Virus genome (UHGV): UHGV-0024713
Length of the DNA stretch: 44,680 nucleotides
Strand: one strand, 5' to 3'
Origin: a virus
Below are positions 500 to 36,212 of this stretch, piece after piece. The first letter of the stretch is position 1. Each line of letters starts with the position of its first letter. The translations under genes and the position numbers were made by a program. Under the pieces are notes generated by a model that did no database searches, was not told where the DNA came from, and saw only the letters and a list, made by a program, of their open reading frames with translations.

Positions 500-2770
500 A
501 TGACCATGAGTTTAATTAAATTCGCCGTAACAAGACCCGCTAAAAAAGGCGAAAAAGCCAGGGCGGAAAACTTCCAGATGACCACCGATGAATTTTTCGA
601 ATTTATCAATGACGCGAAAGAAATCTCCTCGGTGCATATCAACAAGACCGAGGATAAAGCCGAGTATGCGCGCCGCAAGCGTAAGGCCGATGGCATCGTA
701 GCGTATACCAGTGATGGCTTACGCCGCAAGACCAGCGCGGTGGACCGCTCGATCCTGTTCTTTGATATTGACCGCACCGACACTCGCACCTTGCGCCGCT
801 GCCGTAAGGCTTTCATCGACGCGGGTCTGGAACACGTATTTCACACCACTACCGGCGACCGCCACCCGCTGAAAGGAGGCACGCGTTGCGCTCGCTTCCT
901 GGTACTCACTGACAAGCCTGTACCGGCTGAAGACCTGGGCCGCGTCCAGTATGCACTATTACACCAACTGGGGCTGTCAGATGTGGACTTCGACGATTGC
1001 ACGAAAGACACAAACCGCCTTATGTACCTGCCTCACCAGCAATCGGTTGTTAAGTGTCACTATGGCAAGCGCGCCCGCGTCCGTCGTCTGCTCCGCCTGG
1101 CTGACAAGCTGGGGGTTGAGAAAGAGGAAGTTCGCCGCGAACTGACCCAGGGCGACGACGCAGTGGCAGACGGCATTCTGGACTGGTGCTTCCAGGCAGG
1201 ATTCGAGGAGTTATCTTCCGGTCGCGGTTATGAAGTGCCATGCCCTAACGAACACCTGCACAGCGGCGAAGGGTCGACGGCTATCATGGTCAAGGATGGC
1301 GAGATCCGTTTCAAGTGTATGCACACCGGCAACGAGTGTTGCTCGGAGCTAAATAGACACCAGCACCTGGCGCTACGTCTCATCGGGATACCGGACCACC
1401 TGAACGTCGAGCCACACAATATGTCCCGTAAGCAAATCGCCGCCATCCTGCCAGGTCTGGACGACGAGGAAGTCGAATCCTTATATGATCACATTGTTGA
1501 TGCGGTTGGCGACGGCGAAGAATACGGCGTGTGCACCGATGCGGATCTGGATAACGAGCCGGTCGCACTATTCAGTAAGCACGACCCGATTATCGAGGGG
1601 TTGATTAACTTTAAATCGACCTGGTACATGGCGGGTGAGTCGAATATCGGTAAATCGTTCTACGTGCTGGGCCAAATGGGCGCTGTTGCCGCCGGTATTC
1701 CGTTCGGCGGTGCGAAGGTTGTCCAGTCGCATTGCTTCTATTTCGATGCGGAAGGTGGCGAAGCCTCCCACCAGCGTAAGGAAGCATTGCAGATCAAATA
1801 TGAGCACGACCTGGACAAGCTGCACATTATCGACCTGCAATCTCGCGGCTGGGATATCACCAGCAAGTCCGGTTTGCGTGAAGTTATCAGCTTCATCAAC
1901 CGCACCGCTAACGGCGAACCGGTTGGCCTGGTGGCGTTCGACTCCCTCAACCAGACTGTTGCGCTGCGGTCTGCCGATGCTAAACCGTTTGACGAGAACA
2001 ACGCCAGCGATATGGGTGAAGTGGTCAAAGCGCTGAAGGCCATCGCGGAAAATACAGGTGGCAGTGCGGGCGTCATCCACCACCCGGCTAAAGGTGCAAA
2101 CGGCAGCAGAACCCCACGCGGGTCCGGCGCGCTGCATGGTGCTGTCGATTCTGCGTTCTTCCTGGAACAGCCGGACGACAACCAGCCCGGACAATTGAAC
2201 CTGTATCATGAGAAGTCACGTAACGGCATCAAGCAAGCGCCACGCGGCTTCGTCCTGCTCAAGTGCAAGGTTAAGGTGGATCTCCGCAAGTCCGAGGCGT
2301 TCGAGGCGCACCAGTCCACCAGCACCGGGCCAGACTTCGGCGACGTGGTCGCCGGATGGGACGTCAAGCCGATTGCCTCCACGCCACGCGACGAGACTCT
2401 CTATCTCGTACCGGTTGCCCTGGCACCGTTCGCTATTGAACAGGCGAAGGCAGCGGGCAAAGCAGCAGTTAAGGAAGAGAACACCGCCGGACCGCGCAAC
2501 GAAAAAGAGAAAGTGCTTTATGCGGCCCTGGAAAAACTGATGGAAGATAACCCGGACCATACCGGATTCAGTAAATCGGCAATTGTCCGCCAGGCGGGAT
2601 TGGCAAAAGGTGGCACATCGACGAAGGCAATCGACGATATGGTCGAGCGCGGCGTACTCGGTTTTTATACAGACCCACACACCGGGGCCATCTATGGGTC
2701 GTCTAATATCGTCATAAAAACGAATATACCCATCACGCTTTCAGCGACCGATGACGACCTGAGTGATTAG
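500..2770 (+). CDS. Primase-polymerase / helicase fusion (PrimPol-like N-domain, Zn-ribbon, P-loop helicase core, C-terminal extension)
   Basis: N-terminal ILFFDIDR acidic motif; Cys/His cluster CPNEHLHSGE...KCMHTGNECC; Walker A GESNIGKS, Walker B-like LVAFDSL, VIHHPAKG...GSGALHGAVD typical of RepA/DnaB-like P-loop helicases. Confidence 0.7.
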   Translation: MTMSLIKFAVTRPAKKGEKARAENFQMTTDEFFEFINDAKEISSVHINKTEDKAEYARRKRKADGIVAYTSDGLRRKTSAVDRSILFFDIDRTDTRTLRRCRKAFIDAGLEHVFHTTTGDRHPLKGGTRCARFLVLTDKPVPAEDLGRVQYALLHQLGLSDVDFDDCTKDTNRLMYLPHQQSVVKCHYGKRARVRRLLRLADKLGVEKEEVRRELTQGDDAVADGILDWCFQAGFEELSSGRGYEVPCPNEHLHSGEGSTAIMVKDGEIRFKCMHTGNECCSELNRHQHLALRLIGIPDHLNVEPHNMSRKQIAAILPGLDDEEVESLYDHIVDAVGDGEEYGVCTDADLDNEPVALFSKHDPIIEGLINFKSTWYMAGESNIGKSFYVLGQMGAVAAGIPFGGAKVVQSHCFYFDAEGGEASHQRKEALQIKYEHDLDKLHIIDLQSRGWDITSKSGLREVISFINRTANGEPVGLVAFDSLNQTVALRSADAKPFDENNASDMGEVVKALKAIAENTGGSAGVIHHPAKGANGSRTPRGSGALHGAVDSAFFLEQPDDNQPGQLNLYHEKSRNGIKQAPRGFVLLKCKVKVDLRKSEAFEAHQSTSTGPDFGDVVAGWDVKPIASTPRDETLYLVPVALAPFAIEQAKAAGKAAVKEENTAGPRNEKEKVLYAALEKLMEDNPDHTGFSKSAIVRQAGLAKGGTSTKAIDDMVERGVLGFYTDPHTGAIYGSSNIVIKTNIPITLSATDDDLSD

Positions 2771-2781
2771 TTTTTGCGCGC

Positions 2782-2826
2782 ATTGGTTGCCATTTTGAGT
2801 GTTTTTATCTGGCCGTATTGGTTGCC
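2782..2826 (+). promoter_or_regulatory. Direct-repeat pair of ATTGGTTGCC motif (copies at 2782-2791 and 2817-2826)
   Basis: Two identical 10-mers 35 bp apart directly after the primase-helicase stop; same motif recurs at about 10 other intergenic loci. Confidence 0.4.
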
Positions 2827-2876
2827 GTGTAGTGTGAGTATAGTGAATAGTTATGCAATAAATCTGCATAAACTAA

Positions 2877-2978
2877 GCGGGACAAAAAGCGGGACGGACC
2901 AGGGGCGGGACAAAGCGGGACAGCACCCCTGTCCCGCCCCGGATGACGCGGCCTGGCGGGGAGCGGGACAGCGGGACA
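2877..2978. repeat. Iteron array A: six direct GCGGGACA octamers plus one inverted copy, including palindrome GCGGGACAGCACCCCTGTCCCGC (2915-2937)
   Basis: Octamers at about 2877, 2889, 2905, 2915, 2963, 2971; inverted TGTCCCGC at 2930-2937; no credible ORF. Confidence 0.7.
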
Positions 2979-2984
2979 GCACCC

Positions 2985-3034
2985 CAGTCTTTCAGACTAG
3001 ACGGGGGGTCTGGCACCCCCCTCGTCTGAGACTG
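2985..3034. other. Long G/C-cored stem-loop A (CAGTCTTTCAGACTAGACGGGGGG-loop-CCCCCCTCGTCTGAGACTG), near-identical copy at 20035-20083
   Basis: Imperfect extended inverted repeat with G6/C6 core; partner differs mainly in the loop. Confidence 0.6.
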
Positions 3035-3097
3035 CATAAAATCCTGGACTGCATAACACACGGCAACATGATGCAAAGTGCGGTCGTCGATGAACTA

Positions 3098-3107
3098 GGC
3101 AACCAAT
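3098..3107 (-). promoter_or_regulatory. Single reverse-oriented copy of the recurring motif (GGCAACCAAT on + strand)
   Basis: Matches reverse complement of ATTGGTTGCC within the non-coding hub. Confidence 0.3.
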
Positions 3108-3188
3108 GCGAGTTGCAGAATGGTGGGTGAAAAATGCAGTTTGCAGTTACAGCAGATAGCGATCAACTTTTTCATACGCATGATTAAT

Positions 3189-3229
3189 ATTGGTTGCGTC
3201 CGCCCTGGCACCTTGCTATATTGGTTGCA
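3189..3229 (+). promoter_or_regulatory. sigma70-like promoter with embedded motif pair upstream of 3248..3556
   Basis: -35 TTGCGT (3194-3199) inside motif copy 1, 17-nt spacer, -10 TATATT (3217-3222) overlapping motif copy 2 ATTGGTTGCA (3220-3229). Confidence 0.5.
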
Positions 3230-3247
3230 CACCAACATGAGGACTGA

Positions 3248-3556
3248 ATGATGAAAGCGATTATCTGGAATTACTCCCTAGCCGTGGCAAAGTTGGACGA
3301 AGCGAAAGCACTGAACGGCAACATCGACCAGGCGCTTCAGGTTGCGATACTGGCCCACCAATCAATCCGTGATGCGCTCTACCGCATGGGCGCCAGCATG
3401 GACGAACTGAGGCCGTTGCGTATGGCAATCCACGAATACGCGCGGGCATTCTCCCGTGAGCGCCTGGCGTATCGCTTCGGTATTGGCGATAGGGCAGTGA
3501 CAAACGTCGCCAGGATTAAAGCCCAGCGCGAACTATTCGACCAGCTTGCGAAATAA
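3248..3556 (+). CDS. Hypothetical early protein (102 aa)
   Basis: ORF directly downstream of the promoter candidate; no recognisable motif. Confidence 0.5.
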   Translation: MMKAIIWNYSLAVAKLDEAKALNGNIDQALQVAILAHQSIRDALYRMGASMDELRPLRMAIHEYARAFSRERLAYRFGIGDRAVTNVARIKAQRELFDQLAK

Positions 3557-5042: not shown

Positions 5043-5333
5043 ATGGATAAGCTAAACGAGTGGTTATTCGCCCTTGCGTGTCTTGCTGGTGGATTCGTGG
5101 GCGCACGCATTCATGGCGAGGCAACGAAAGGGCCGTTGAACTTCGTTTTATATGTAGTAGTTGGCTTCCTGTGTGCCATATTTGGTGCGCCAGCTATTGC
5201 CGAGTGGTCTGGCTTATCGGGCGAGCGCACTGTCGCCGGTTTGGGCTTCGTAACCGCAATCTTCTGGATGCCAATCGCCGACCGGATCAGGGAGACTATT
5301 GCGTCGTTCCGACTTCCGGGGGGTGCAAAATGA
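5043..5333 (+). CDS. Holin-like membrane protein (96 aa, about 3 transmembrane segments)
   Basis: Three hydrophobic helices; sits two genes upstream of the endolysin. Confidence 0.5.
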   Translation: MDKLNEWLFALACLAGGFVGARIHGEATKGPLNFVLYVVVGFLCAIFGAPAIAEWSGLSGERTVAGLGFVTAIFWMPIADRIRETIASFRLPGGAK

Positions 5334-5575
5334 TTATCTCCGTCCTGTTGTTTGTTATCATCGGGGCTTCGTCCCTGTTTAACGTGTATGCGCCGTCCGT
5401 CCGGGATGGCTTTTTCGGTCGGGTGCTGTATCTGTTAACGGCAATGGTCTGTTTTATCGGATTGTTGCAAACCGGAGACGTATCTGATACCACCTGGACC
5501 GCGTTAATCTGGCTGTTTGCATTGCGCACGCTGCGTAATGCTGTTTTGAATGGGGTAAAACATGCGATTCAGTGA
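5330..5575 (+). CDS. Second holin/antiholin-like membrane protein (81 aa)
   Basis: Internal ATG of track ORF 5060..5575 overlapping upstream stop (ATGA); 2-3 hydrophobic helices. Confidence 0.45.
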   Translation: MIISVLLFVIIGASSLFNVYAPSVRDGFFGRVLYLLTAMVCFIGLLQTGDVSDTTWTALIWLFALRTLRNAVLNGVKHAIQ

Positions 5576-17217: not shown

Positions 17218-17811
17218 GTGGCTGAAGTCTACTCATTCGCCGCCACTATTGCTACATGGGTGGATAAGACGAAGGAGAACAACGATAAGGCGGTGCGGGC
17301 GTACGGGATGCAAATACTCGGACGCCTTATTGAGATCTCCCCGGTGGGCGACCCTCGCCGGTGGAAGATTAACAAGGCTTATGCAATGGCCCTCCAGCAC
17401 GCGAACAAGGTGAACGCCGCACAGCGTCGCAAGAATGGCGGCAAACTGAAGCGCGGGCAGAAGAAGCACGCCAGTGCGCTGGTATCATTCAAGACTAAAA
17501 ACGGCAACGTCACGTTCCGACAGCGTGGCTGGGCTGCGAAGAATTACACCGGAGGGCGCTTCCGCGGTAACTGGCAGGTTACGTTCGACCGCCCGGCTGT
17601 TGGCGCTATTGACCGCGTTGACAAGGCCGGAACGGCAACATTAGCCGCGGGACGTGAAGTGCTGGCGCATTACGATTCAAGTGAATACGGGTCGATCTGG
17701 TTTACTAACAATGTGCCGTATGCGAAACGACTTGAGTATGGCTGGAGTCTACAAGCGCCTGCGGGGGTTGTTCGCGTCGTAGCGGCAGAAATTAATTCGA
17801 AGGTGAAATAA
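17218..17811 (+). CDS. Tail completion protein (lambda Z-like position), GTG start
   Basis: 197-aa ORF starting 2 nt after the upstream stop; call by synteny. Confidence 0.45.
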   Translation: MAEVYSFAATIATWVDKTKENNDKAVRAYGMQILGRLIEISPVGDPRRWKINKAYAMALQHANKVNAAQRRKNGGKLKRGQKKHASALVSFKTKNGNVTFRQRGWAAKNYTGGRFRGNWQVTFDRPAVGAIDRVDKAGTATLAAGREVLAHYDSSEYGSIWFTNNVPYAKRLEYGWSLQAPAGVVRVVAAEINSKVK

Positions 17812-18233
17812 TGAGCAATACTCTAATCCGCAAGGCGCTTAACAGCGTAGTAGAAGAATTATCGGTTAGCCTGAGCACTAGCACGCGCCAGGTAAAGGTA
17901 AACTGGGAGAACGTGAGCGGCGACCACGCAAACGGCAGCGGTGTCTACTTGGAACCGTATCTGCTTCCGGCCCCGACCCAGTTTGTGGGATTCCAGCAGA
18001 AGGGCCGGATCTATGCAGGCGTGTATCAGGTTGCTGTGGTATTTCCTGCGGGCACTGGCACACAGTATGCGAGCGAACTGGCGGACGCCATCGCGACGTC
18101 TGACAAGTGGCAGGCCGTAAGGCTTACAGGCGCTGCATTCCAGCTTCAGGACGCGCCATACACCAGTTCCGTGATTGAGGATGTTGATCGCGCCCGCATC
18201 GTGGTTACAGTCCCCTACACCTGTTGCGCCTGA
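17811..18233 (+). CDS. Tail terminator protein (lambda U-like position)
   Basis: 140-aa ORF overlapping the upstream stop; call by synteny. Confidence 0.45.
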   Translation: MSNTLIRKALNSVVEELSVSLSTSTRQVKVNWENVSGDHANGSGVYLEPYLLPAPTQFVGFQQKGRIYAGVYQVAVVFPAGTGTQYASELADAIATSDKWQAVRLTGAAFQLQDAPYTSSVIEDVDRARIVVTVPYTCCA

Positions 18234-18294
18234 TTTGGCGCATTTCTGCGCGTGCTGTATCATTAATTCGTATATCTAAACAGGAGCGTTCATT

Positions 18295-19020
18295 ATGGGT
18301 TATCAACTTCCTAACGGGTCCAGCGTCCAGATTGGGTCCGTACTGGGCACCGGCATCGCTGTTACGGCAGCTTCCAACGCCACCGCGTCGATCTCCGACC
18401 TTACGCAAGGTTGCGTTATTACCTGTGCGGCTTCGCATGGTCTGGCTGTTGGCGACGTTGTTATGTTCACTAAAACCCCGTGGGTCCGAGCGCTTAACCG
18501 TGCCTTCATTGTGGGTAAAGTAGCCGAGAACGACGTGACGCTGGCGCGCTTCGACTCCTCTGACGTGACCAAATATCCTACCGGCGCGTTTGGTGTAGGC
18601 ACTCCGGGCGAAGTGGTGAAGGTGTCGAGCTTTATCGACTTCCCTTTCATTACTAACGTTGCCATATCTGGTGGTGATCAGCAGACGACCACCTTCCAGC
18701 CGTTGCAGGTGAACACCGCAATCAGCCTTAACACCACGAAAAACCCGTTGGTCCAGACTTACACCTTCACCCACGACGATGAAGACCCGATCCGCCCAAT
18801 CCTGGAAGAACTGGACGACACACAGAAAACCACTGTGATTAAGTTCACTAACCCAGCGGCAGCAAGCGGCAAGGGCGAGATCCGTATTTACCCAGCTAAG
18901 GTATCTTTCCAGAAGATTCCGTCCTCTGAAGTAAACAACGTGGAAACTGTGCAATCAACTCTGACCATGCAGTCTGATATGGTTATATACCGTAAGGATC
19001 TGGTCGAGGCATTGTCTTGA
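18295..19020 (+). CDS. Major tail protein
   Basis: 241-aa ORF with RBS, followed by a strong terminator and then the tail chaperone and tape-measure genes. Confidence 0.6.
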   Translation: MGYQLPNGSSVQIGSVLGTGIAVTAASNATASISDLTQGCVITCAASHGLAVGDVVMFTKTPWVRALNRAFIVGKVAENDVTLARFDSSDVTKYPTGAFGVGTPGEVVKVSSFIDFPFITNVAISGGDQQTTTFQPLQVNTAISLNTTKNPLVQTYTFTHDDEDPIRPILEELDDTQKTTVIKFTNPAAASGKGEIRIYPAKVSFQKIPSSEVNNVETVQSTLTMQSDMVIYRKDLVEALS

Positions 19021-19050
19021 TTTGGTCGCTTAAATAGCGAGTGATAATAT

Positions 19051-19073
19051 GGGGCCAGCACGGCCCCTTTTTT
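19051..19073 (+). terminator. Intrinsic terminator after the major tail gene
   Basis: GGGGCC-agca-CGGCCCC followed by T6. Confidence 0.7.
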
Positions 19074-19089
19074 ATTGGAGAATACTACA

Positions 19090-19452
19090 ATGGCTAAAGC
19101 ACCACTCTTTACACTTGACCCTAAGCCGACCTTTAAGCTGCCGATTGAGATCCCGCGCCCTGGCGAGAACGAACCAGGCAAGATGACGTTTACCGTACGC
19201 CACCGCCCGATCGATGAATTTTCGCAAACCATGCAGGACACCGAACGGAAGTTGTCGGAATATGACGACAATGACCCGGACGGCTTTAACGTTATGGTCG
19301 AGGCCATCATGCACGTCGCTGAAGGCTGGAATCTGCCGGACGAATTTAACGCGGAGAACGTCCGCCGCCTGGTGGTCAACTATCCTCGCGCGTTCGGTGT
19401 GTTCCACACGTCGTACTATCTCGAACTGATGGGATTGCGTGAAAAAAACTAA
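19090..19452 (+). CDS. Tail assembly chaperone (lambda G-like)
   Basis: 120-aa acidic protein between major tail and tape-measure genes; ends EKN* over slippery heptamer. Confidence 0.7.
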   Translation: MAKAPLFTLDPKPTFKLPIEIPRPGENEPGKMTFTVRHRPIDEFSQTMQDTERKLSEYDDNDPDGFNVMVEAIMHVAEGWNLPDEFNAENVRRLVVNYPRAFGVFHTSYYLELMGLREKN

Positions 19453-19766
19453 TTGAGGCGGCGCGGCGCTTTTATGGCCCGCCGCCACCCTCTGAAGATT
19501 TAGCCGCAAGTTTATGGGGTGCGTCCCCCGAAGATGTTTGTCCGCCTGTTGCGCTATGGCCCGACAACGCGAAGATAGTCGCAGTCTTCACAGATTGCTC
19601 CACGCAATGGCGCACCGGATTTGGTGGCGCATACGGCATAGACTACGGCGTGTTGGAGTGGTTATTTAAGATGCACGGTATCGAAAACGAGCAGCGCGCG
19701 TTTAAAGATATCAAGCTAATGGAACGAATCGCGCTTGATGAAATGGCGCAGCAGAACCCCGCATAA
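19090..19766 (+). CDS. Tail assembly chaperone frameshift fusion product (lambda G-T-like)
   Basis: -1 frame extension of about 105 codons (KKLIEAARRFYGPPPP...DEMAQQNPA) with no own start codon or RBS. Confidence 0.55.
19443..19449 (+). other. Programmed -1 ribosomal frameshift slippery heptamer A_AAA_AAC
   Basis: X_XXY_YYZ heptamer in the last codons of the chaperone gene; the -1 frame is open from here to a stop at 19764-19766. Confidence 0.6.
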
Positions 19767-19770
19767 TGAA

Positions 19771-20029
19771 GCGGGACAAAACGGGACGTCCCGTTTTGTC
19801 CCGCCCCTGCAAAACTGCATATACAATCACTTCAATTGCATAAACTCAAAGCGGGACAGGCGGGACACCCCGTTTTGTCCCGCCCTGTAAATGTGCATAC
19901 CTATGCAGATCTCGTGCATAAAGTAAGCGGGACAGAAAGCGGGACAAACAAGGGGCGGGACAGAGCGGGACAGCACCCCGTCCCCGCCAGTGCTGCCGCG
20001 GTTTTTAGTCGATCGGGACAGGCGGGACA
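19771..20029. repeat. Iteron array B: about 10 GCGGGACA-type octamers in both orientations, including a perfect 34-bp palindrome (19771-19804)
   Basis: GCGGGACAAAACGGGAC/GTCCCGTTTTGTCCCGC; octamers at about 19851, 19860, 19927, 19939, 19955, 19965, 20013, 20022; 19915-19988 is near-identical to 2865-2940. Confidence 0.7.
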
Positions 20030-20034
20030 AACCA

Positions 20035-20083
20035 CAGTCTTTCAGACTAGACGGGGGTCAACGGCCCCCCTCGTCTGAGACTG
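20035..20083. other. Stem-loop B, second copy of the 2985-3034 element
   Basis: CAGTCTTTCAGACTAGACGGGGG-tcaacgg-CCCCCCTCGTCTGAGACTG; stems conserved, loop differs. Confidence 0.6.
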
Positions 20084-20151
20084 AATAAGGTTTGTTTTAA
20101 AATCGCTGATACAATGTCAATCGGCAACTGCATAAAAAAGGGGACTGCATA

Positions 20152-22794
20152 ATGGCAGATCAAGCGGCAGGCATCACGCTCAAGGTCGATGCCTCACAAG
20201 TAAAAACGGCGAATACCGCGCTGGACTCGTTCGCGCAGAAGTCTGAGAACACCGAACGGAAAGTTAAGAAATTAAACGACACCCTCGGCAACTCGAAAAA
20301 GGTAACGAGTGACGCCGCTGGCGGGATGGAAAAGTTAGCGACTGAATCGCAGCGCGCCGCCGACGGCATGACGAAACAGGAGCGACTTGCCAACCGGTTA
20401 GGAATGTCGACCAAAAACCTGGGCTTTGCCTCACGCAACGCCGCATTCCAGTTACAGGATATCGCGGTTACGCTTGAGATGGGTATGCCGGTGCACCGCG
20501 TTATGCTTCAGCAGTTACCACAGCTTACTGGGGCGTTCGGTGGATTGGGTAACACGCTGCGTTATGTTGCTGGCTTCCTCGGTCCGGTAGGGATCGGCAT
20601 CGCAGCACTAACGGCAACGTTAGGCGTAGGAGTGGCGGTTACGTCCCGTGCCGAAAACCAGGTCGCAGCGCTTAACAAGACGCTGGCGCTGTCGGGTAAT
20701 ATCTCCGGCCTCACTGCAAACCAGATCCTGGTGCTATCCGAGAACGCCGAGCGCATGGGCGGGTCCTTCCGTAAGACGCGTGACACAATCCAGGCGCTGG
20801 CGGCGGCGGGTGTGAAAGCGGGTGCGGACTTCGGCACGCTGGCGAAAGTGGTGAATGACTTTGCGAAGGCGTCTAATCAGCCGATCTCTGACGTGGTTGA
20901 ATCCATCTCTAAATTGTCAAACGACCCAGTGGGCGGACTGCGTGCGCTGGCGGATAAGTATCATGTCGTAACCGAAGCGCAGATCCAGCAGGTGCAATCG
21001 CTTGTAGATATGGGGCGTGAAACGGACGCGGTTGCTCTGGCTAACAAAACCGCCGCCGCGTCGTTCGCCAGCATGACCAACGATGTCAAGGCCAACATGG
21101 GTACGCTTGAGCGGTCGATGAACGTCGTTACATCAGCAGCGAAATCTATGTGGGATGCCATCCTGGATGTGGGCCGCGCGCAGTCATCTAATGAGTCCGA
21201 GATGAAAGCGCGTGAGTCCTTGCAGCGCATGACCACGGCTTACTATGCCGAGATGAAAGCGGTAAACGCTGCCGGTGGGGTGGTGACCGAAGCGCAAAAA
21301 GCGCGTATTAACATGCTTTACAGCGAACTGGTCGCCCAGGAAAAGGTGGTGGCGACACTTACCCTGCGCAACCGTGCCGAGCGAGACAACGCCAGCGCCG
21401 CTGACGAAGCAGCAAAGGCGAACGAGGAGGCAAACCGCACCGCCCGCGACCGCGCCGCGTTTGAGAAGGAGTTCGCAACCAACGCGAAGAGGCGCGCCGA
21501 CGAGATCGCCCGCCTCAATTTGCTGAATAAGCGGGGCGTGATTAGCGAAAAAGAACTCGCCGAGGCGGTGAAGCAGGTAAACGAGCGCTACAAAGACCCG
21601 GCCCCGAAAAAGGCCGCGGCTGTTCGCGTGGATTCCGGTATGAAAATGCTGGAGGTTGCACGTAGCGAACTGGCACAGCTTCGAGAATCAGGCAAGCAGA
21701 TCGAAGCCAACGCGTCGACGCAGACCCGAGCGCAACGCGCTCAATCAGCACTTAACAAGCTGATCGCAGATCATGAACAGTTAATCGCAGCAAGCAAAGA
21801 AAGAGCACTAACGGCAGCGGAAAAGCAGCAAATTGCGGGTTTCGAGGCGGTTAAATCGGTACGCGAGCAGATCGTCGAAGAAGCCAAATTGCTGGACGCG
21901 AAAGAGAAGCAGATCAAGGCACATGCCCAGGTCGAGGCATTCATCAAGAACCAGAACGCCGAGCTAAAAGCCACCGCGGCGGGCTATGCGCTTTCTACTC
22001 GCGAAGCGGCTAACCTGCGCGAAGAATTGCAGCTAATTGACCGCCTTCAGCGTGTTGGTGCTAACGATACCGATATCGACAAGGCGGTGTCTAAGCTGCG
22101 TGAAGTTCAGGACGCACAGACCGGTGCTAACGCCTCGCTATGGGATGGATTCAGTCGCGGGCTTCGCGATAGTGTGGATGAAATGGGTAACGGCTATACG
22201 CAGATGACGTCACTCACAAAATTCACGTTCGGCGCTATGCAGGACACGATGAACGAGTTTTTCGAGACTGGCAAGCTGAACGCAAAGGATATGGTTAAGT
22301 CCATCCTGAGCGAATTAATCAAGCTGGCTACATCGCAGGCGTTCAAGTCCATCGTTAGCGCTTTCGGTGGCGACGGCGGCAAAAACGGATTGTTCGGCGC
22401 TATCTTTTCCGGCCTGACTAAGAACGCAGACGGCGGAGCGTACGCAGGGGGCAACCTCGCGGCCTATTCGGGGCAAGTGGTAAGCCAGCCCACCTTTTTC
22501 AGTTATGGCGTCCAGGCGTTCGCTAAGGGCGCAGGATTGATGGGTGAGGCCGGACCTGAAGCCATCATGCCACTGAAGCGCGGCCCGGACGGCAAACTTG
22601 GAGTTGCCGCTGCCGGAGGTGTCGGGGGAATGATTGTAACGACCAACGTTAACATGGGGACCGGTAAGACGGATACCAGTGTTAGCGGACCAGACCCGCG
22701 CACCGCGCAGGCGTTCGGAAAGCAAATCACCGAGTCTGTCAAGGCCGAGATCGTGAAGGCGACGAAACCGGGTGGTGTACTTTACAAACGATGA
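20152..22794 (+). CDS. Tail tape measure protein
   Basis: 880-aa Ala/Gln/Lys-rich helical protein after the G/T chaperone; Gly-rich C-terminal region. Confidence 0.9.
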   Translation: MADQAAGITLKVDASQVKTANTALDSFAQKSENTERKVKKLNDTLGNSKKVTSDAAGGMEKLATESQRAADGMTKQERLANRLGMSTKNLGFASRNAAFQLQDIAVTLEMGMPVHRVMLQQLPQLTGAFGGLGNTLRYVAGFLGPVGIGIAALTATLGVGVAVTSRAENQVAALNKTLALSGNISGLTANQILVLSENAERMGGSFRKTRDTIQALAAAGVKAGADFGTLAKVVNDFAKASNQPISDVVESISKLSNDPVGGLRALADKYHVVTEAQIQQVQSLVDMGRETDAVALANKTAAASFASMTNDVKANMGTLERSMNVVTSAAKSMWDAILDVGRAQSSNESEMKARESLQRMTTAYYAEMKAVNAAGGVVTEAQKARINMLYSELVAQEKVVATLTLRNRAERDNASAADEAAKANEEANRTARDRAAFEKEFATNAKRRADEIARLNLLNKRGVISEKELAEAVKQVNERYKDPAPKKAAAVRVDSGMKMLEVARSELAQLRESGKQIEANASTQTRAQRAQSALNKLIADHEQLIAASKERALTAAEKQQIAGFEAVKSVREQIVEEAKLLDAKEKQIKAHAQVEAFIKNQNAELKATAAGYALSTREAANLREELQLIDRLQRVGANDTDIDKAVSKLREVQDAQTGANASLWDGFSRGLRDSVDEMGNGYTQMTSLTKFTFGAMQDTMNEFFETGKLNAKDMVKSILSELIKLATSQAFKSIVSAFGGDGGKNGLFGAIFSGLTKNADGGAYAGGNLAAYSGQVVSQPTFFSYGVQAFAKGAGLMGEAGPEAIMPLKRGPDGKLGVAAAGGVGGMIVTTNVNMGTGKTDTSVSGPDPRTAQAFGKQITESVKAEIVKATKPGGVLYKR

Positions 22795-24217: not shown

Positions 24218-24958
24218 ATGTTAACGAAAAAGGTTAAAAGCGATATCGCCGCGCACGTTGCGGCATGTCTGCCGGAAGAAGCCTGTGGGTTGGTAGTCAT
24301 GGTGGGTCGCAAGCAAGTATTCGTACCATGTCAGAACGTCTTCGAAGACCCGACCGGCGTGCGCTCGCGCAAAGACGCGTTTACAATTAGCGATATGGCC
24401 TGGATGGATGCCGAGGATATGGGCGACGTTGTGCGCGTAGTCCACTCGCACCCGGGTCAGCGCGAGCTAACCCCGTCATTGGGCGACGTTAACGGATGCA
24501 ACGGCAGCGGCGTCGTCTGGACAATTACCAATGAGTATGGCGACTTTATCGAGATCGACCCGGAAGACCCGCCACTGGTAGGTCGCCGATTTGTTCTCGG
24601 AATTACGGATTGCTACGGCCTCGTCATGGACTGGCACAAAAAGCAGGGCGTAAACCTGCCAGACTTCCGCGTACCATACAACTGGTGGGAGACAGGCGAA
24701 AACCTGTATATGGACAATTGGTATGGCGCGGGCTTCCGGGAGTGTGAGGAGAATACACCCGGGGCGATGGTCATCATGCAGATTAGCGCGCCAGTGCCTA
24801 ACCATGCCGGAATCTACCTTCCGGGCAACCAACTACTACACCATATCTACGGCAGCCTGTCGAGCGTCATCCCCTTCCGGGCAGGATTTTTCCGCGACAA
24901 TGTGGTTAAATGGGTACGTCATAAAGACCTACCGGGGAATATCACAGAATGGCAATGA
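24218..24958 (+). CDS. Tail assembly protein K-like (MPN/JAB plus NlpC/P60 domains)
   Basis: HSHP metal-site motif; Cys/His pattern (GITDCYGLV...WHKKQG, ...PNHAGIYL) typical of NlpC/P60. Confidence 0.8.
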   Translation: MLTKKVKSDIAAHVAACLPEEACGLVVMVGRKQVFVPCQNVFEDPTGVRSRKDAFTISDMAWMDAEDMGDVVRVVHSHPGQRELTPSLGDVNGCNGSGVVWTITNEYGDFIEIDPEDPPLVGRRFVLGITDCYGLVMDWHKKQGVNLPDFRVPYNWWETGENLYMDNWYGAGFRECEENTPGAMVIMQISAPVPNHAGIYLPGNQLLHHIYGSLSSVIPFRAGFFRDNVVKWVRHKDLPGNITEWQ

Positions 24959-25566
24959 CCACCTTTAAACTATACGGCGTCTTAGGACGTCGTTTCGGTA
25001 AAGTGCATAAGCTGGACTGCTTCACACCGGGCGAGGGAATCACCGGCCTGTGTGTGAAGTTACCAGGCTTACAGGACTTTCTAATGTCGGCCCACCTGGA
25101 CAACATGATGTTCAAGGTGCGCAAGGGTAATCACACAATGACCGGTTACGACGAGTTGGGCGAGTTCCACGGCAACCGCGTCGTGACCATCGCACCGGTT
25201 ATGACCGGCGCAAAACGCGGACTAGGCCAATTACTGGCGGGCGTAGCCATCGTGGTGGCGTCGTTCTACACCGGCGGCCTTGCGACTGCCGCCTTTGGTG
25301 CTTCCGCCGCTACCGCTGCCGCTATTGGTACGGCGACGTTCTCGTTCGGGATGTCGATGGCGCTGGGCGGTGCTATGCAATTGCTGTCGCCACAGCCGAA
25401 AGGATTGCAGACACGGCAGGACGTGGATAACAAAGCGTCGTATGCGTTCGGCGGACCGGTAAACACGACCGCACAAGGTACGGCACTTGGTGTATTATGG
25501 GGCGAGCGTGAGATCGGCGGCGCTATTATTTCAGCCGGAATCGTAACCGAGGACTTGAACGAATGA
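24949..25566 (+). CDS. Tail assembly protein I-like
   Basis: 205-aa protein between K and J with Gly/Ala-rich hydrophobic C-terminal half. Confidence 0.7.
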   Translation: MAMTTFKLYGVLGRRFGKVHKLDCFTPGEGITGLCVKLPGLQDFLMSAHLDNMMFKVRKGNHTMTGYDELGEFHGNRVVTIAPVMTGAKRGLGQLLAGVAIVVASFYTGGLATAAFGASAATAAAIGTATFSFGMSMALGGAMQLLSPQPKGLQTRQDVDNKASYAFGGPVNTTAQGTALGVLWGEREIGGAIISAGIVTEDLNE

Positions 25567-35187: not shown

Positions 35188-35505
35188 TTACGCATAAAAA
35201 TTCGGGTCGCGCGATACGTCTACCAGGTAAAGGTTACTCATGCGGTTGCCGTAGTGCCCTGGTGTGCGCTGGCGACACACAACGGCGTAGCCCGGAGGGA
35301 TTGTATTGCCAGTCTCGATAATCCACGCCACGCGTGCGCCTGACAGCGTTTTGCCGTTGTATTCGATACGTGTGCCACCATCGGCGGTGTTGAGGTTGCC
35401 AATTTTGCAGCCAGTGGACTTCAGACGGATGACACCGGTCTTACTGTCGTAAGTGAAAAGCTGGTTAGTCATTGCAACCGAAAAATCGATGGCTTCGAAT
35501 GTCAT
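35188..35505 (-). CDS. Hypothetical protein (105 aa)
   Basis: ORF overlapping the methyltransferase-like gene stop. Confidence 0.45.
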   Translation of the reverse strand: MTFEAIDFSVAMTNQLFTYDSKTGVIRLKSTGCKIGNLNTADGGTRIEYNGKTLSGARVAWIIETGNTIPPGYAVVCRQRTPGHYGNRMSNLYLVDVSRDPNFYA

Positions 35506-36212
35506 TTTAAATTTTCCTCATTGACCGCTATTGCAAAGCCGCGCGGAGTGAGCGACCGGATTAATTTGGTGCGTGCTGATTTGCCTCCGAGGCGACTATA
35601 CTGCTTCGAGTACCCTTTTTCAACGAATACAGGCTTTTTCTCCGGCATACGGAAGCCGTTGCCGGTCCATAAGCAGGTCAGCTTCGGATACGAATCGCGA
35701 GCGTTGATATATTCCGGGAACAACGGGTGTACGTCATCCTCCGGTAGATAGCCGCCATACTCCCACGGGTCAAACGAGTGGTCTGGCTTACGCCACTGTG
35801 TGGAAAGCACACTGCGCGGATTCTCAATCATATACGGCACCTCAAAGAAGTCACCCAGAAAAGCGGCGATCTTCGCGGTGCGCACTGCCTTAAGCTGAAA
35901 GGCCGGATCTTTTGCACGCTTGCGCGGGAATGCTTGCGCACCGCTAACTGCCAGATCCGTACACGGCGGGAAAGCGTATATGATATCCGGCGTACCGAAA
36001 TCCCCATTCATCGCGCGGTCCACGAAATCCAGATCGATAAACTCATTACGGTATCGGATACCGCGACCATAAATACGGTAGTCCAGGTACGACCCATGAT
36101 CGGCTTCGGAGTAGTTGAAACAGTAGCATTTGTGCCCCATTTCGGCAGCACGCTCTATCATCAAGCCGCTGCCGTCAAACAACGACCAGATAGTCATTTT
36201 TGCAATAGTCAC
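35502..36212 (-). CDS. C5-cytosine DNA methyltransferase-like protein, unusually short (236 aa)
   Basis: Motif I-like LFDGSG, PC-motif FPPCTDLAVSG, ENV-like YMIENPRSV in canonical order. Confidence 0.55.
   Translation of the reverse strand: MTIAKMTIWSLFDGSGLMIERAAEMGHKCYCFNYSEADHGSYLDYRIYGRGIRYRNEFIDLDFVDRAMNGDFGTPDIIYAFPPCTDLAVSGAQAFPRKRAKDPAFQLKAVRTAKIAAFLGDFFEVPYMIENPRSVLSTQWRKPDHSFDPWEYGGYLPEDDVHPLFPEYINARDSYPKLTCLWTGNGFRMPEKKPVFVEKGYSKQYSRLGGKSARTKLIRSLTPRGFAIAVNEENLK

Follow-up and report, generated by a model that had tools for sequence, protein, structure and literature searches.

A predicted −1 ribosomal frameshift of the G/GT type in the tail module of a Dhillonvirus genome

The window analyzed here is the entire stretch of viral DNA UHGV-0024713, 44,680 nucleotides in length. 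In its tail module, the gene for a putative tail assembly chaperone ends at a TAA codon and is overlapped by a long open frame in the −1 register, and the question is by which route, if any, this second frame is translated. An initial annotation had proposed a programmed −1 frameshift at A_AAA_AAC producing a fusion of the lambda G-T kind, and had placed it at 19443-19766. The first of these positions is indeed the first base of the heptamer, but the chaperone gene itself starts at 19090. The locus was judged, with a probability of about 0.9 and from sequence comparison, to encode a programmed −1 ribosomal frameshift of the phage G/GT type, which would yield a predicted G-T fusion of 225 aa. 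This reading is supported by the anatomy of the locus, its synteny, the domains of the two products, the conserved heptamer, a gapless junction, the profile phrog_17368, the pattern of selection and a downstream hairpin. The sequence-level predictions of the G/GT type all held, in support of the frameshift as first proposed.

Positions 18200-20200 were compared with phage genomes by megablast, and 159 phage records matched at 80-95% identity, the best being Sodalis phage SO-1 (94.8%). Since nearly all of the records are Escherichia/Shigella phages of the genus Dhillonvirus, the window is, by these matches, a Dhillonvirus (HK578/SO-1-like) siphophage/coliphage genome. The order of genes in its tail module is the lambda-like V-G-T-H-M-L-K-I-J. 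Homologues of lambda M, L, K (JAB + NlpC/P60) and J were found 3' of the tape measure gene, and the ORF at 24949-25566, of unassigned family, occupies the position of lambda I. The G-T pair lies between the genes for the major tail protein and the tape measure protein, which is the location that the G/GT class calls for. The features of the region are listed in Table 1.

Table 1. Features of the tail module around the G-T locus (positions of the window)
Feature	Position	Strand	Basis or remark
Tail terminator gene	17811-18233		Upstream of tail tube gene
Major tail (tube) protein gene, lambda V position	18295..19020	+	Pfam PF08813 Phage_tail_3, E=2.3e-32; phrog_584 major tail protein
Terminator-like hairpin GGGGCC-AGCAC-GGCCCC, then T-run TTTTTTATT	19051..19076	+	Consensus scan
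G-like tail assembly (tape measure) chaperone gene, 0-frame product, 120 aa, 14.0 kDa	19090..19452	+	PF08748
Predicted G-T fusion, join(19090..19449,19449..19766), 225 aa, 25.6 kDa	19090..19766	+	Conceptual translation
Slippery heptamer A_AAA_AAC (P-site AAA, A-site AAC)	19443..19449	+	Direct sequence reading
T-like −1 frame segment, 105 codons + stop, DUF1799 domain	19449..19766	+	PF08809; phrog_680
0-frame stop TAA directly 3' of heptamer	19450..19452	+	Possible 'shifty stop' contribution (putative role)
Probable stimulatory hairpin, outer stem GGCGGCG (19457-19463) / CGCCGCC (19480-19486)	19457..19486	+	Spacer of 7 nt after heptamer
Tape measure protein gene, lambda H position	20152..22794	+	Pfam PF06791 TMP_2, E=5e-44; PF09718 Tape_meas_lam_C

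The terminator-like hairpin lies downstream of the major tail protein gene and ahead of the ribosome-binding site of G, and is probably an attenuator that would reduce expression of the chaperone relative to the tube protein. On the other side of the pair, a non-coding repeat region of about 385 bp (19767-20150) parts T from the tape measure gene. The 8-mer GCGGGACA was counted 19 times in the window (2 expected), mostly in two clusters within non-coding DNA, one of 10 copies (19771-20029) and one of 6 (2877-2978). The regions that contain these clusters (19767-20150 and 2770-3250) both carry TGCATAA-type repeats and a hairpin of about 50 nt (20036-20084 and 2986-3034, respectively); they are named 'region A' and 'region B' in the SO-1 record. 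The segment 19771-19804 is a perfect 34-bp palindrome, given as a terminator in the HK578 record. The two repeat regions resemble arrays of binding sites or a promoter-terminator module. In lambda and in the T1-like phages no such module stands between G/GT and the tape measure gene.

The upstream gene starts with ATG at 19090, preceded 9 nt upstream by GGAG (19077-19080), and its final codons are CGT GAA AAA AAC TAA. Its product was matched to Pfam PF08748 Phage_TAC_4 over residues 1-120 (profile positions 1-124) with E=1.4e-23 and 83.9 bits (gathering cutoff 21.1), which bears out the earlier assignment as a tail chaperone. An identical protein is present in public Dhillonvirus records, where it is named tape measure chaperone or tail assembly chaperone, and in 44 G homologues the C-terminal Asn is at least 90% conserved. 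An AlphaFold model of G built from an alignment reached a pLDDT of 85.7; the single-sequence model was poor (pLDDT 55). The model had no significant match among solved structures. In BFVD it matched models of the 'tape measure chaperone', including entries of 129 aa and 236 aa from Serratia phage Scapp and one of 210 aa from Klebsiella phage Solomon, and these lengths may be read as short and long isoforms annotated in some relatives.

In the −1 frame a TGA stands at 19440-19442, and no further stop follows until TAA at 19764-19766; the open stretch begins at 19443, the first base of the heptamer. It comprises 107 codons, of which 105 lie beyond the slip, in agreement with the length first given for it (about 105 further codons). 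No ATG, GTG or TTG codon was found in this frame before GTG at 19650 (codon 70), and no Shine-Dalgarno sequence, so that the lack of a start codon and ribosome-binding site of its own, part of the original argument, held up when the frame was searched. The segment was matched to Pfam PF08809 DUF1799 with E=1.1e-20 and 74.1 bits (gathering cutoff 26), residues 25-101 of T covering positions 1-80 of the 80-position profile. As the domain begins 45 codons ahead of the first possible T start codon, it could not be made from a start of its own. Variation within the genus was scored in 19 distinct Dhillonvirus sequences, in which 194 of 677 sites are variable. The T frame is free of stops in all 19, and its variable sites are divided 22/9/69 among codon positions 1/2/3, a pattern that indicates purifying selection on the T frame.

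The heptamer is in X_XXY_YYZ phase relative to G and is followed directly by the G stop, as had been claimed for the end of the chaperone gene. No more than 10 nt are shared by the two frames and these are taken up by the heptamer, which is therefore the sole place where a −1 joining could occur. The predicted junction reads ...LREKN|LIEAARR..., or ...LREKK|LIEAARR... if the P-site tRNA alone slips. The chance of a phased X_XXY_YYZ motif at one fixed position is 1/256. Within long open frames of the window 37 heptamers were counted, and five of these, both strands included, also have a nearby 0-frame stop and a long −1 ORF. Since the pattern occurs five times it is insufficient by itself, and the case is carried by the other evidence. 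Among the five, only the heptamer at 19443 lacks a start codon near the junction (none for 69 codons); in two of the others an ATG and its ribosome-binding site come directly after, and in the remaining two an in-frame TTG or GTG is found 14-31 codons downstream. The heptamers GGGGGGT / AAATTTA (5318-5335 on the + strand; 35505-35514 on the − strand) were considered as frameshift sites and set aside as ordinary overlapping gene junctions, having an ATG and a ribosome-binding site a few bases on.

Sequence collections were searched for the fused protein. The profile phrog_17368 (213 positions) is covered by G at 1-107 and by the −1 product at 148-212; because it spans both halves, phage protein sets already include fused members of this family. 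The exact 225-aa fusion was not found in a collection of 15 billion proteins, and a profile search gave no natural or deposited in-frame G-T fusion carrying both Pfam domains among the 120 matches listed of 130. With the conceptual fusion as a single query, only three matches were obtained in a set of 5.8 billion proteins. Searches of PDB sequences with the fusion and with an alignment profile gave nothing significant. Conceptual fusions from ten distant phages were aligned without gaps from G to T. Neither R117 nor L121 varies, and A124 hardly does; L121 is the first codon read in the −1 frame.

The T segment was used in a tblastn search and was found in 1161 phage records. These belong to Dhillonvirus, to T1-like Drexlerviridae (Tunavirus, Tlsvirus, Rogunavirus, Braunvirinae and Webervirus) and, at 30-40% identity, to Ralstonia phages, Stenotrophomonas phages and others. 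A comparison set of 129 loci was assembled from 16 annotated regions and 113 IMG/VR loci, metagenomic phages included. T is in the −1 frame relative to G in all 125 loci with an intact junction. At the homologous position and phase, A_AAA_AAC was found in 102/129 loci and G_GGA_AAC in 19/129, which answers the earlier suggestion that conservation of the heptamer be checked in relatives (121/129 together). Of the 121 loci with a heptamer, 120 have the G stop immediately behind it; in L083 the heptamer is kept though the stop is displaced 6 codons downstream. A_AAA_AAC is invariant across all the Dhillonvirus sequences. The exchange of one heptamer for another with phase and position kept indicates that slipperiness, not sequence, is maintained, as selection for slippage predicts. 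The peptide used in the first IMG/VR scan (KKLIEAAR) covers the junction and so favours A-rich junctions; in a second scan, with peptides outside the junction, A_AAA_AAC was found in 31 of 35 loci.

In four of the 129 (L010 and L129, from Klebsiella phages Diencephalon and JVSB2; L006, KingDDD; L011, phiJLA23) there is only a tetramer, A_AAG or A_AAA_G, one codon upstream. A_AAG is the best-ranked tetramer in E. coli according to Sharma et al. (PMC4066793). The Diencephalon group has a GTG inside the overlap, so that T was called by annotators as a separate gene, and it may be that some members of the family slip on a tetramer or initiate T independently. Four T1-like contigs from IMG/VR (L102, L109, L127 and L128) read GTAAAAACTAA near position 601, one A fewer than 31 other T1-like loci, which puts T in the +1 frame. 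The missing A is likely a homopolymer sequencing error, and could be a real length instability of the slippery run. L071, L082 and L083 were considered as in-frame fusions and turned out to be ordinary −1 arrangements in high-GC genomes.

Signals flanking the heptamer were also sought. The 40 nt that follow it fold with a minimum free energy of −22.1 kcal/mol, within the top 0.1% of all 40-nt windows of the genome and the top 0.6% of those matched for GC content. The segment 19441-19486 (46 bases) has the lowest variability of the G-T region within the genus, with 2 variable sites in the 19 Dhillonvirus sequences against about 13 expected (binomial 3e-5, for a segment picked post hoc). The same alignment columns pair in T1-like phages. 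Across 31 distinct sequences, pairing is possible in 86.7% of cells, versus 34-56% when the partner strand is slid, and both sides have changed in three pairs; this covariation comes mostly from the single split between Dhillonvirus and T1-like phages. In 63 distinct relatives, the folding energy after the heptamer had a median percentile of 0.14, with 32% below 0.05. As the covariation is mostly one split and the folding is not universal across relatives, the hairpin is regarded as a probable stimulator of slippage within the Dhillonvirus/T1-like clade and not in the family as a whole. No Rfam family reached its gathering score in the window, and only chance-level matches fell in 19380-20160. 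The search for an upstream Shine-Dalgarno-like stimulator gave just a weak GGGA 8 nt upstream of the heptamer, which is not conserved.

From these features the following course of translation is proposed. Most ribosomes on the G gene would stop at TAA 19450, giving the 120-aa chaperone G, and a minority would slip back by one base at A_AAA_AAC. The slip would be a tandem one, the tRNA-Lys on AAA 19444-19446 in the P site and the tRNA-Asn on AAC 19447-19449 in the A site re-pairing with AAA AAA. Slipped ribosomes would next read CUA (19449-19451) and go on through 105 codons to give the 225-aa G-T, with DUF1799 in its C-terminal half. Slippage is probably made more frequent by the GC-rich hairpin 7 nt downstream, and perhaps also by the adjacent stop codon. 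On the model of lambda, the tape measure protein would be coated by G and by the G portion of GT, the T part would recruit the tail tube protein, and neither G nor GT would be present in the final virion.

The expected GT:G ratio is low. As a −1 site in E. coli, A_AAA_AAC is markedly weaker than A_AAA_AAG because re-pairing of the A-site tRNA from AAC to AAA is poorly tolerated (PMC4066793, PMC5009743), and the efficiency of the slip may therefore be low. A low yield would suit a chaperone pair of the lambda type, which in lambda is needed at roughly 30:1 (PMC5009743). The near-universal adjacency of the stop is suggestive of a contribution by the 'shifty stop' effect (Weiss et al., 1987, as cited in PMC5009743). 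In Dhillonvirus and T1-like phages the adjacency is retained by way of a CUA leucine codon in the −1 frame. CUA is the rarest leucine codon in E. coli. Because the stop abuts the heptamer in nearly every locus and the adjacency is kept through CUA, a composite signal can be envisaged, tentatively and at rather long odds, in which a weak heptamer, an obligatorily adjacent 0-frame stop and a hairpin act together, slippage competes with termination, and the GT:G ratio is set by release-factor kinetics and host physiology. Together with the terminator and repeat module, by which G/GT is uncoupled from the tape measure gene in Dhillonviruses, such a signal would, if true, give the lineage its own tuning of chaperone stoichiometry.

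Three other explanations of the open frame were weighed against ribosomal frameshifting. A separate T protein could arise by independent initiation, or by termination and reinitiation at the G stop, from ATT at 19452 (overlapping the TAA) or from an internal GTG, TTG or ATG. The SO-1 and HK578 records do annotate gp16, a 104-codon ORF starting at the equivalent of this ATT, and in the Diencephalon/JVSB2 lineage, which lacks the canonical heptamer, T is called from the GTG in the overlap. However, the −1 frame has no ATG, GTG or TTG before codon 70 and no Shine-Dalgarno sequence precedes the ATT, and starts at 19650-19671 would remove most of DUF1799. The codon at the ATT site is not conserved as a start, being AAA in T1-like phages and ATC, AGA or similar elsewhere, whereas the heptamer is conserved, and the residues upstream of the site (K and L121) are conserved as protein. 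A separately initiated T is thus considered very improbable. That the −1 ORF is not expressed at all, the heptamer and open frame being a coincidence or a decaying remnant, would agree with the absence of the fusion from the 15-billion-protein collection and with the many annotation pipelines that skip the ORF. Against this stand the significant match to PF08809, the homologues similarly arranged in more than 1000 phage records, and the stop-free T frame of the 19 Dhillonvirus sequences with its variation heavy in third positions; the selection pattern effectively excludes non-expression, which we regard as the least credible of the alternatives.

The fused frame could also be reached at the level of the transcript, if RNA polymerase slipped on the A7 run (19442-19448) and added one A, so that some mRNAs encoded G-T in one frame. 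The run of seven A's is present, and the four T1-like contigs differing by one A show that its length is unstable, at least in sequencing or replication. Appreciable slippage by the E. coli RNA polymerase usually needs about nine A's, and A7 is shorter. Transcriptional slippage is known to occur at homopolymer runs (PMC5009743), but 19 related loci use G_GGA_AAC, a classic tandem-slippage heptamer containing no long homopolymer. The motif's fixed phase with respect to G, and a structured element at the 7-nt spacing typical of ribosomal stimulators, also point away from the polymerase, and this route is held to be highly unlikely. Slippage of the ribosome at A_AAA_AAC is the reading retained.

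Sixteen annotated records (five from Dhillonvirus, and others from T1-like and Klebsiella phages) were examined for the way in which the locus is annotated, and none has a joined (ribosomal slippage) CDS. A literature search on Dhillonvirus/HK578 frameshifting and DUF1799 returned no description of the site among the papers covered. With no joined CDS, no description in those papers and the fusion absent from the protein collection, this instance is seemingly unannotated, not unknown in kind. In the Dhillonvirus records (L003, SECphi18; L093, Teewinot; L002, UDS3lw; L001, SO-1; L092, HK578), the annotation of G is inconsistent, often 'tail length tape measure protein' or 'major tail protein'. 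T is missing, cut into fragments of 31-38 aa or started at ATT, and spurious antisense ORFs are placed over the T region; the 31-38-aa fragments make up a separate PHROG, phrog_14875. The phage very probably makes the long chaperone form by ribosomal slippage; the arrangement is the ordinary, well-known one of lambda G/GT, and it is unannotated in the Dhillonvirus records examined. The main value of the result lies in annotation, since the joined coding sequence (Table 1) corrects the proteome of a genus widely used in studies of E. coli phage-host interaction and defence; the understanding of frameshifting or of tail assembly is unchanged by it.

In lambda, G/G-T is made by −1 programmed frameshifting at G_GGA_AAG (Levin et al., 1993; Xu et al., 2004; 2013; 2014; as reviewed in PMC5009743). 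The initial annotation had likened the window's pair to it in position and logic, and the comparison is borne out. In both, two overlapping ORFs lie between the tail tube and tape measure genes, the second ORF, read in the −1 frame, lacks a start of its own, and a canonical heptamer is found near the end of G; the remaining tail module has counterparts of H, M, L, K, I and J. As read from the sequence, the window's G-T has the features of the G/GT class of Xu, Hendrix and Duda (2004). The pair does not fall into the families of lambda gpG and gpT, which are presumably PF06894 and PF06223: its halves belong to PF08748 and PF08809, no other chaperone or T family matched at E≤0.1 in Pfam, and the NCBIfam search gave no match. 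The heptamer is A_AAA_AAC and not G_GGA_AAG, and, unlike in lambda, the 0-frame stop abuts it and a strong hairpin follows. The lambda frameshift is not known to need a downstream structure. The terminator-like palindrome and the 385-bp repeat region between T and the tape measure gene are further differences. The likeness to lambda is thus, on these comparisons, one of logic and synteny and not of sequence family.

The same heptamer is used in the insertion sequences of cluster A_AAA_AAC_1, which we take to be IS1 insA-insB'. There, it has been proven to direct frameshifting in E. coli at a low level; unlike the window's locus, the element makes a transposase and has no established stimulator (PMC4066793). 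In Acinetobacter phage Loki, AAAAAAC abuts the stop codon of the chaperone in gp12/gp13 (PMC5313236); a tblastn search from an Acinetobacter PF08748 protein, as a check of homology to the window's G, did not retrieve Loki. The closest parallel is offered by the T1-like (Drexlerviridae) phages and the allied Klebsiella and Serratia siphophages, which have the PF08748 and PF08809 pair, with T 35-40% identical. In the T1-like phages the heptamer is identical and stop-adjacent, and the hairpin occupies the same alignment columns, with stems GGCGGTTT/AAACCGCC in place of GGCGGCG/CGCCGCC. Unlike in the window, their tape measure gene begins within about 25-40 nt after T. Judged by domains and signal, the window's pair has its true relatives in the tape measure chaperones of the T1-like phages, whose signal is identical.
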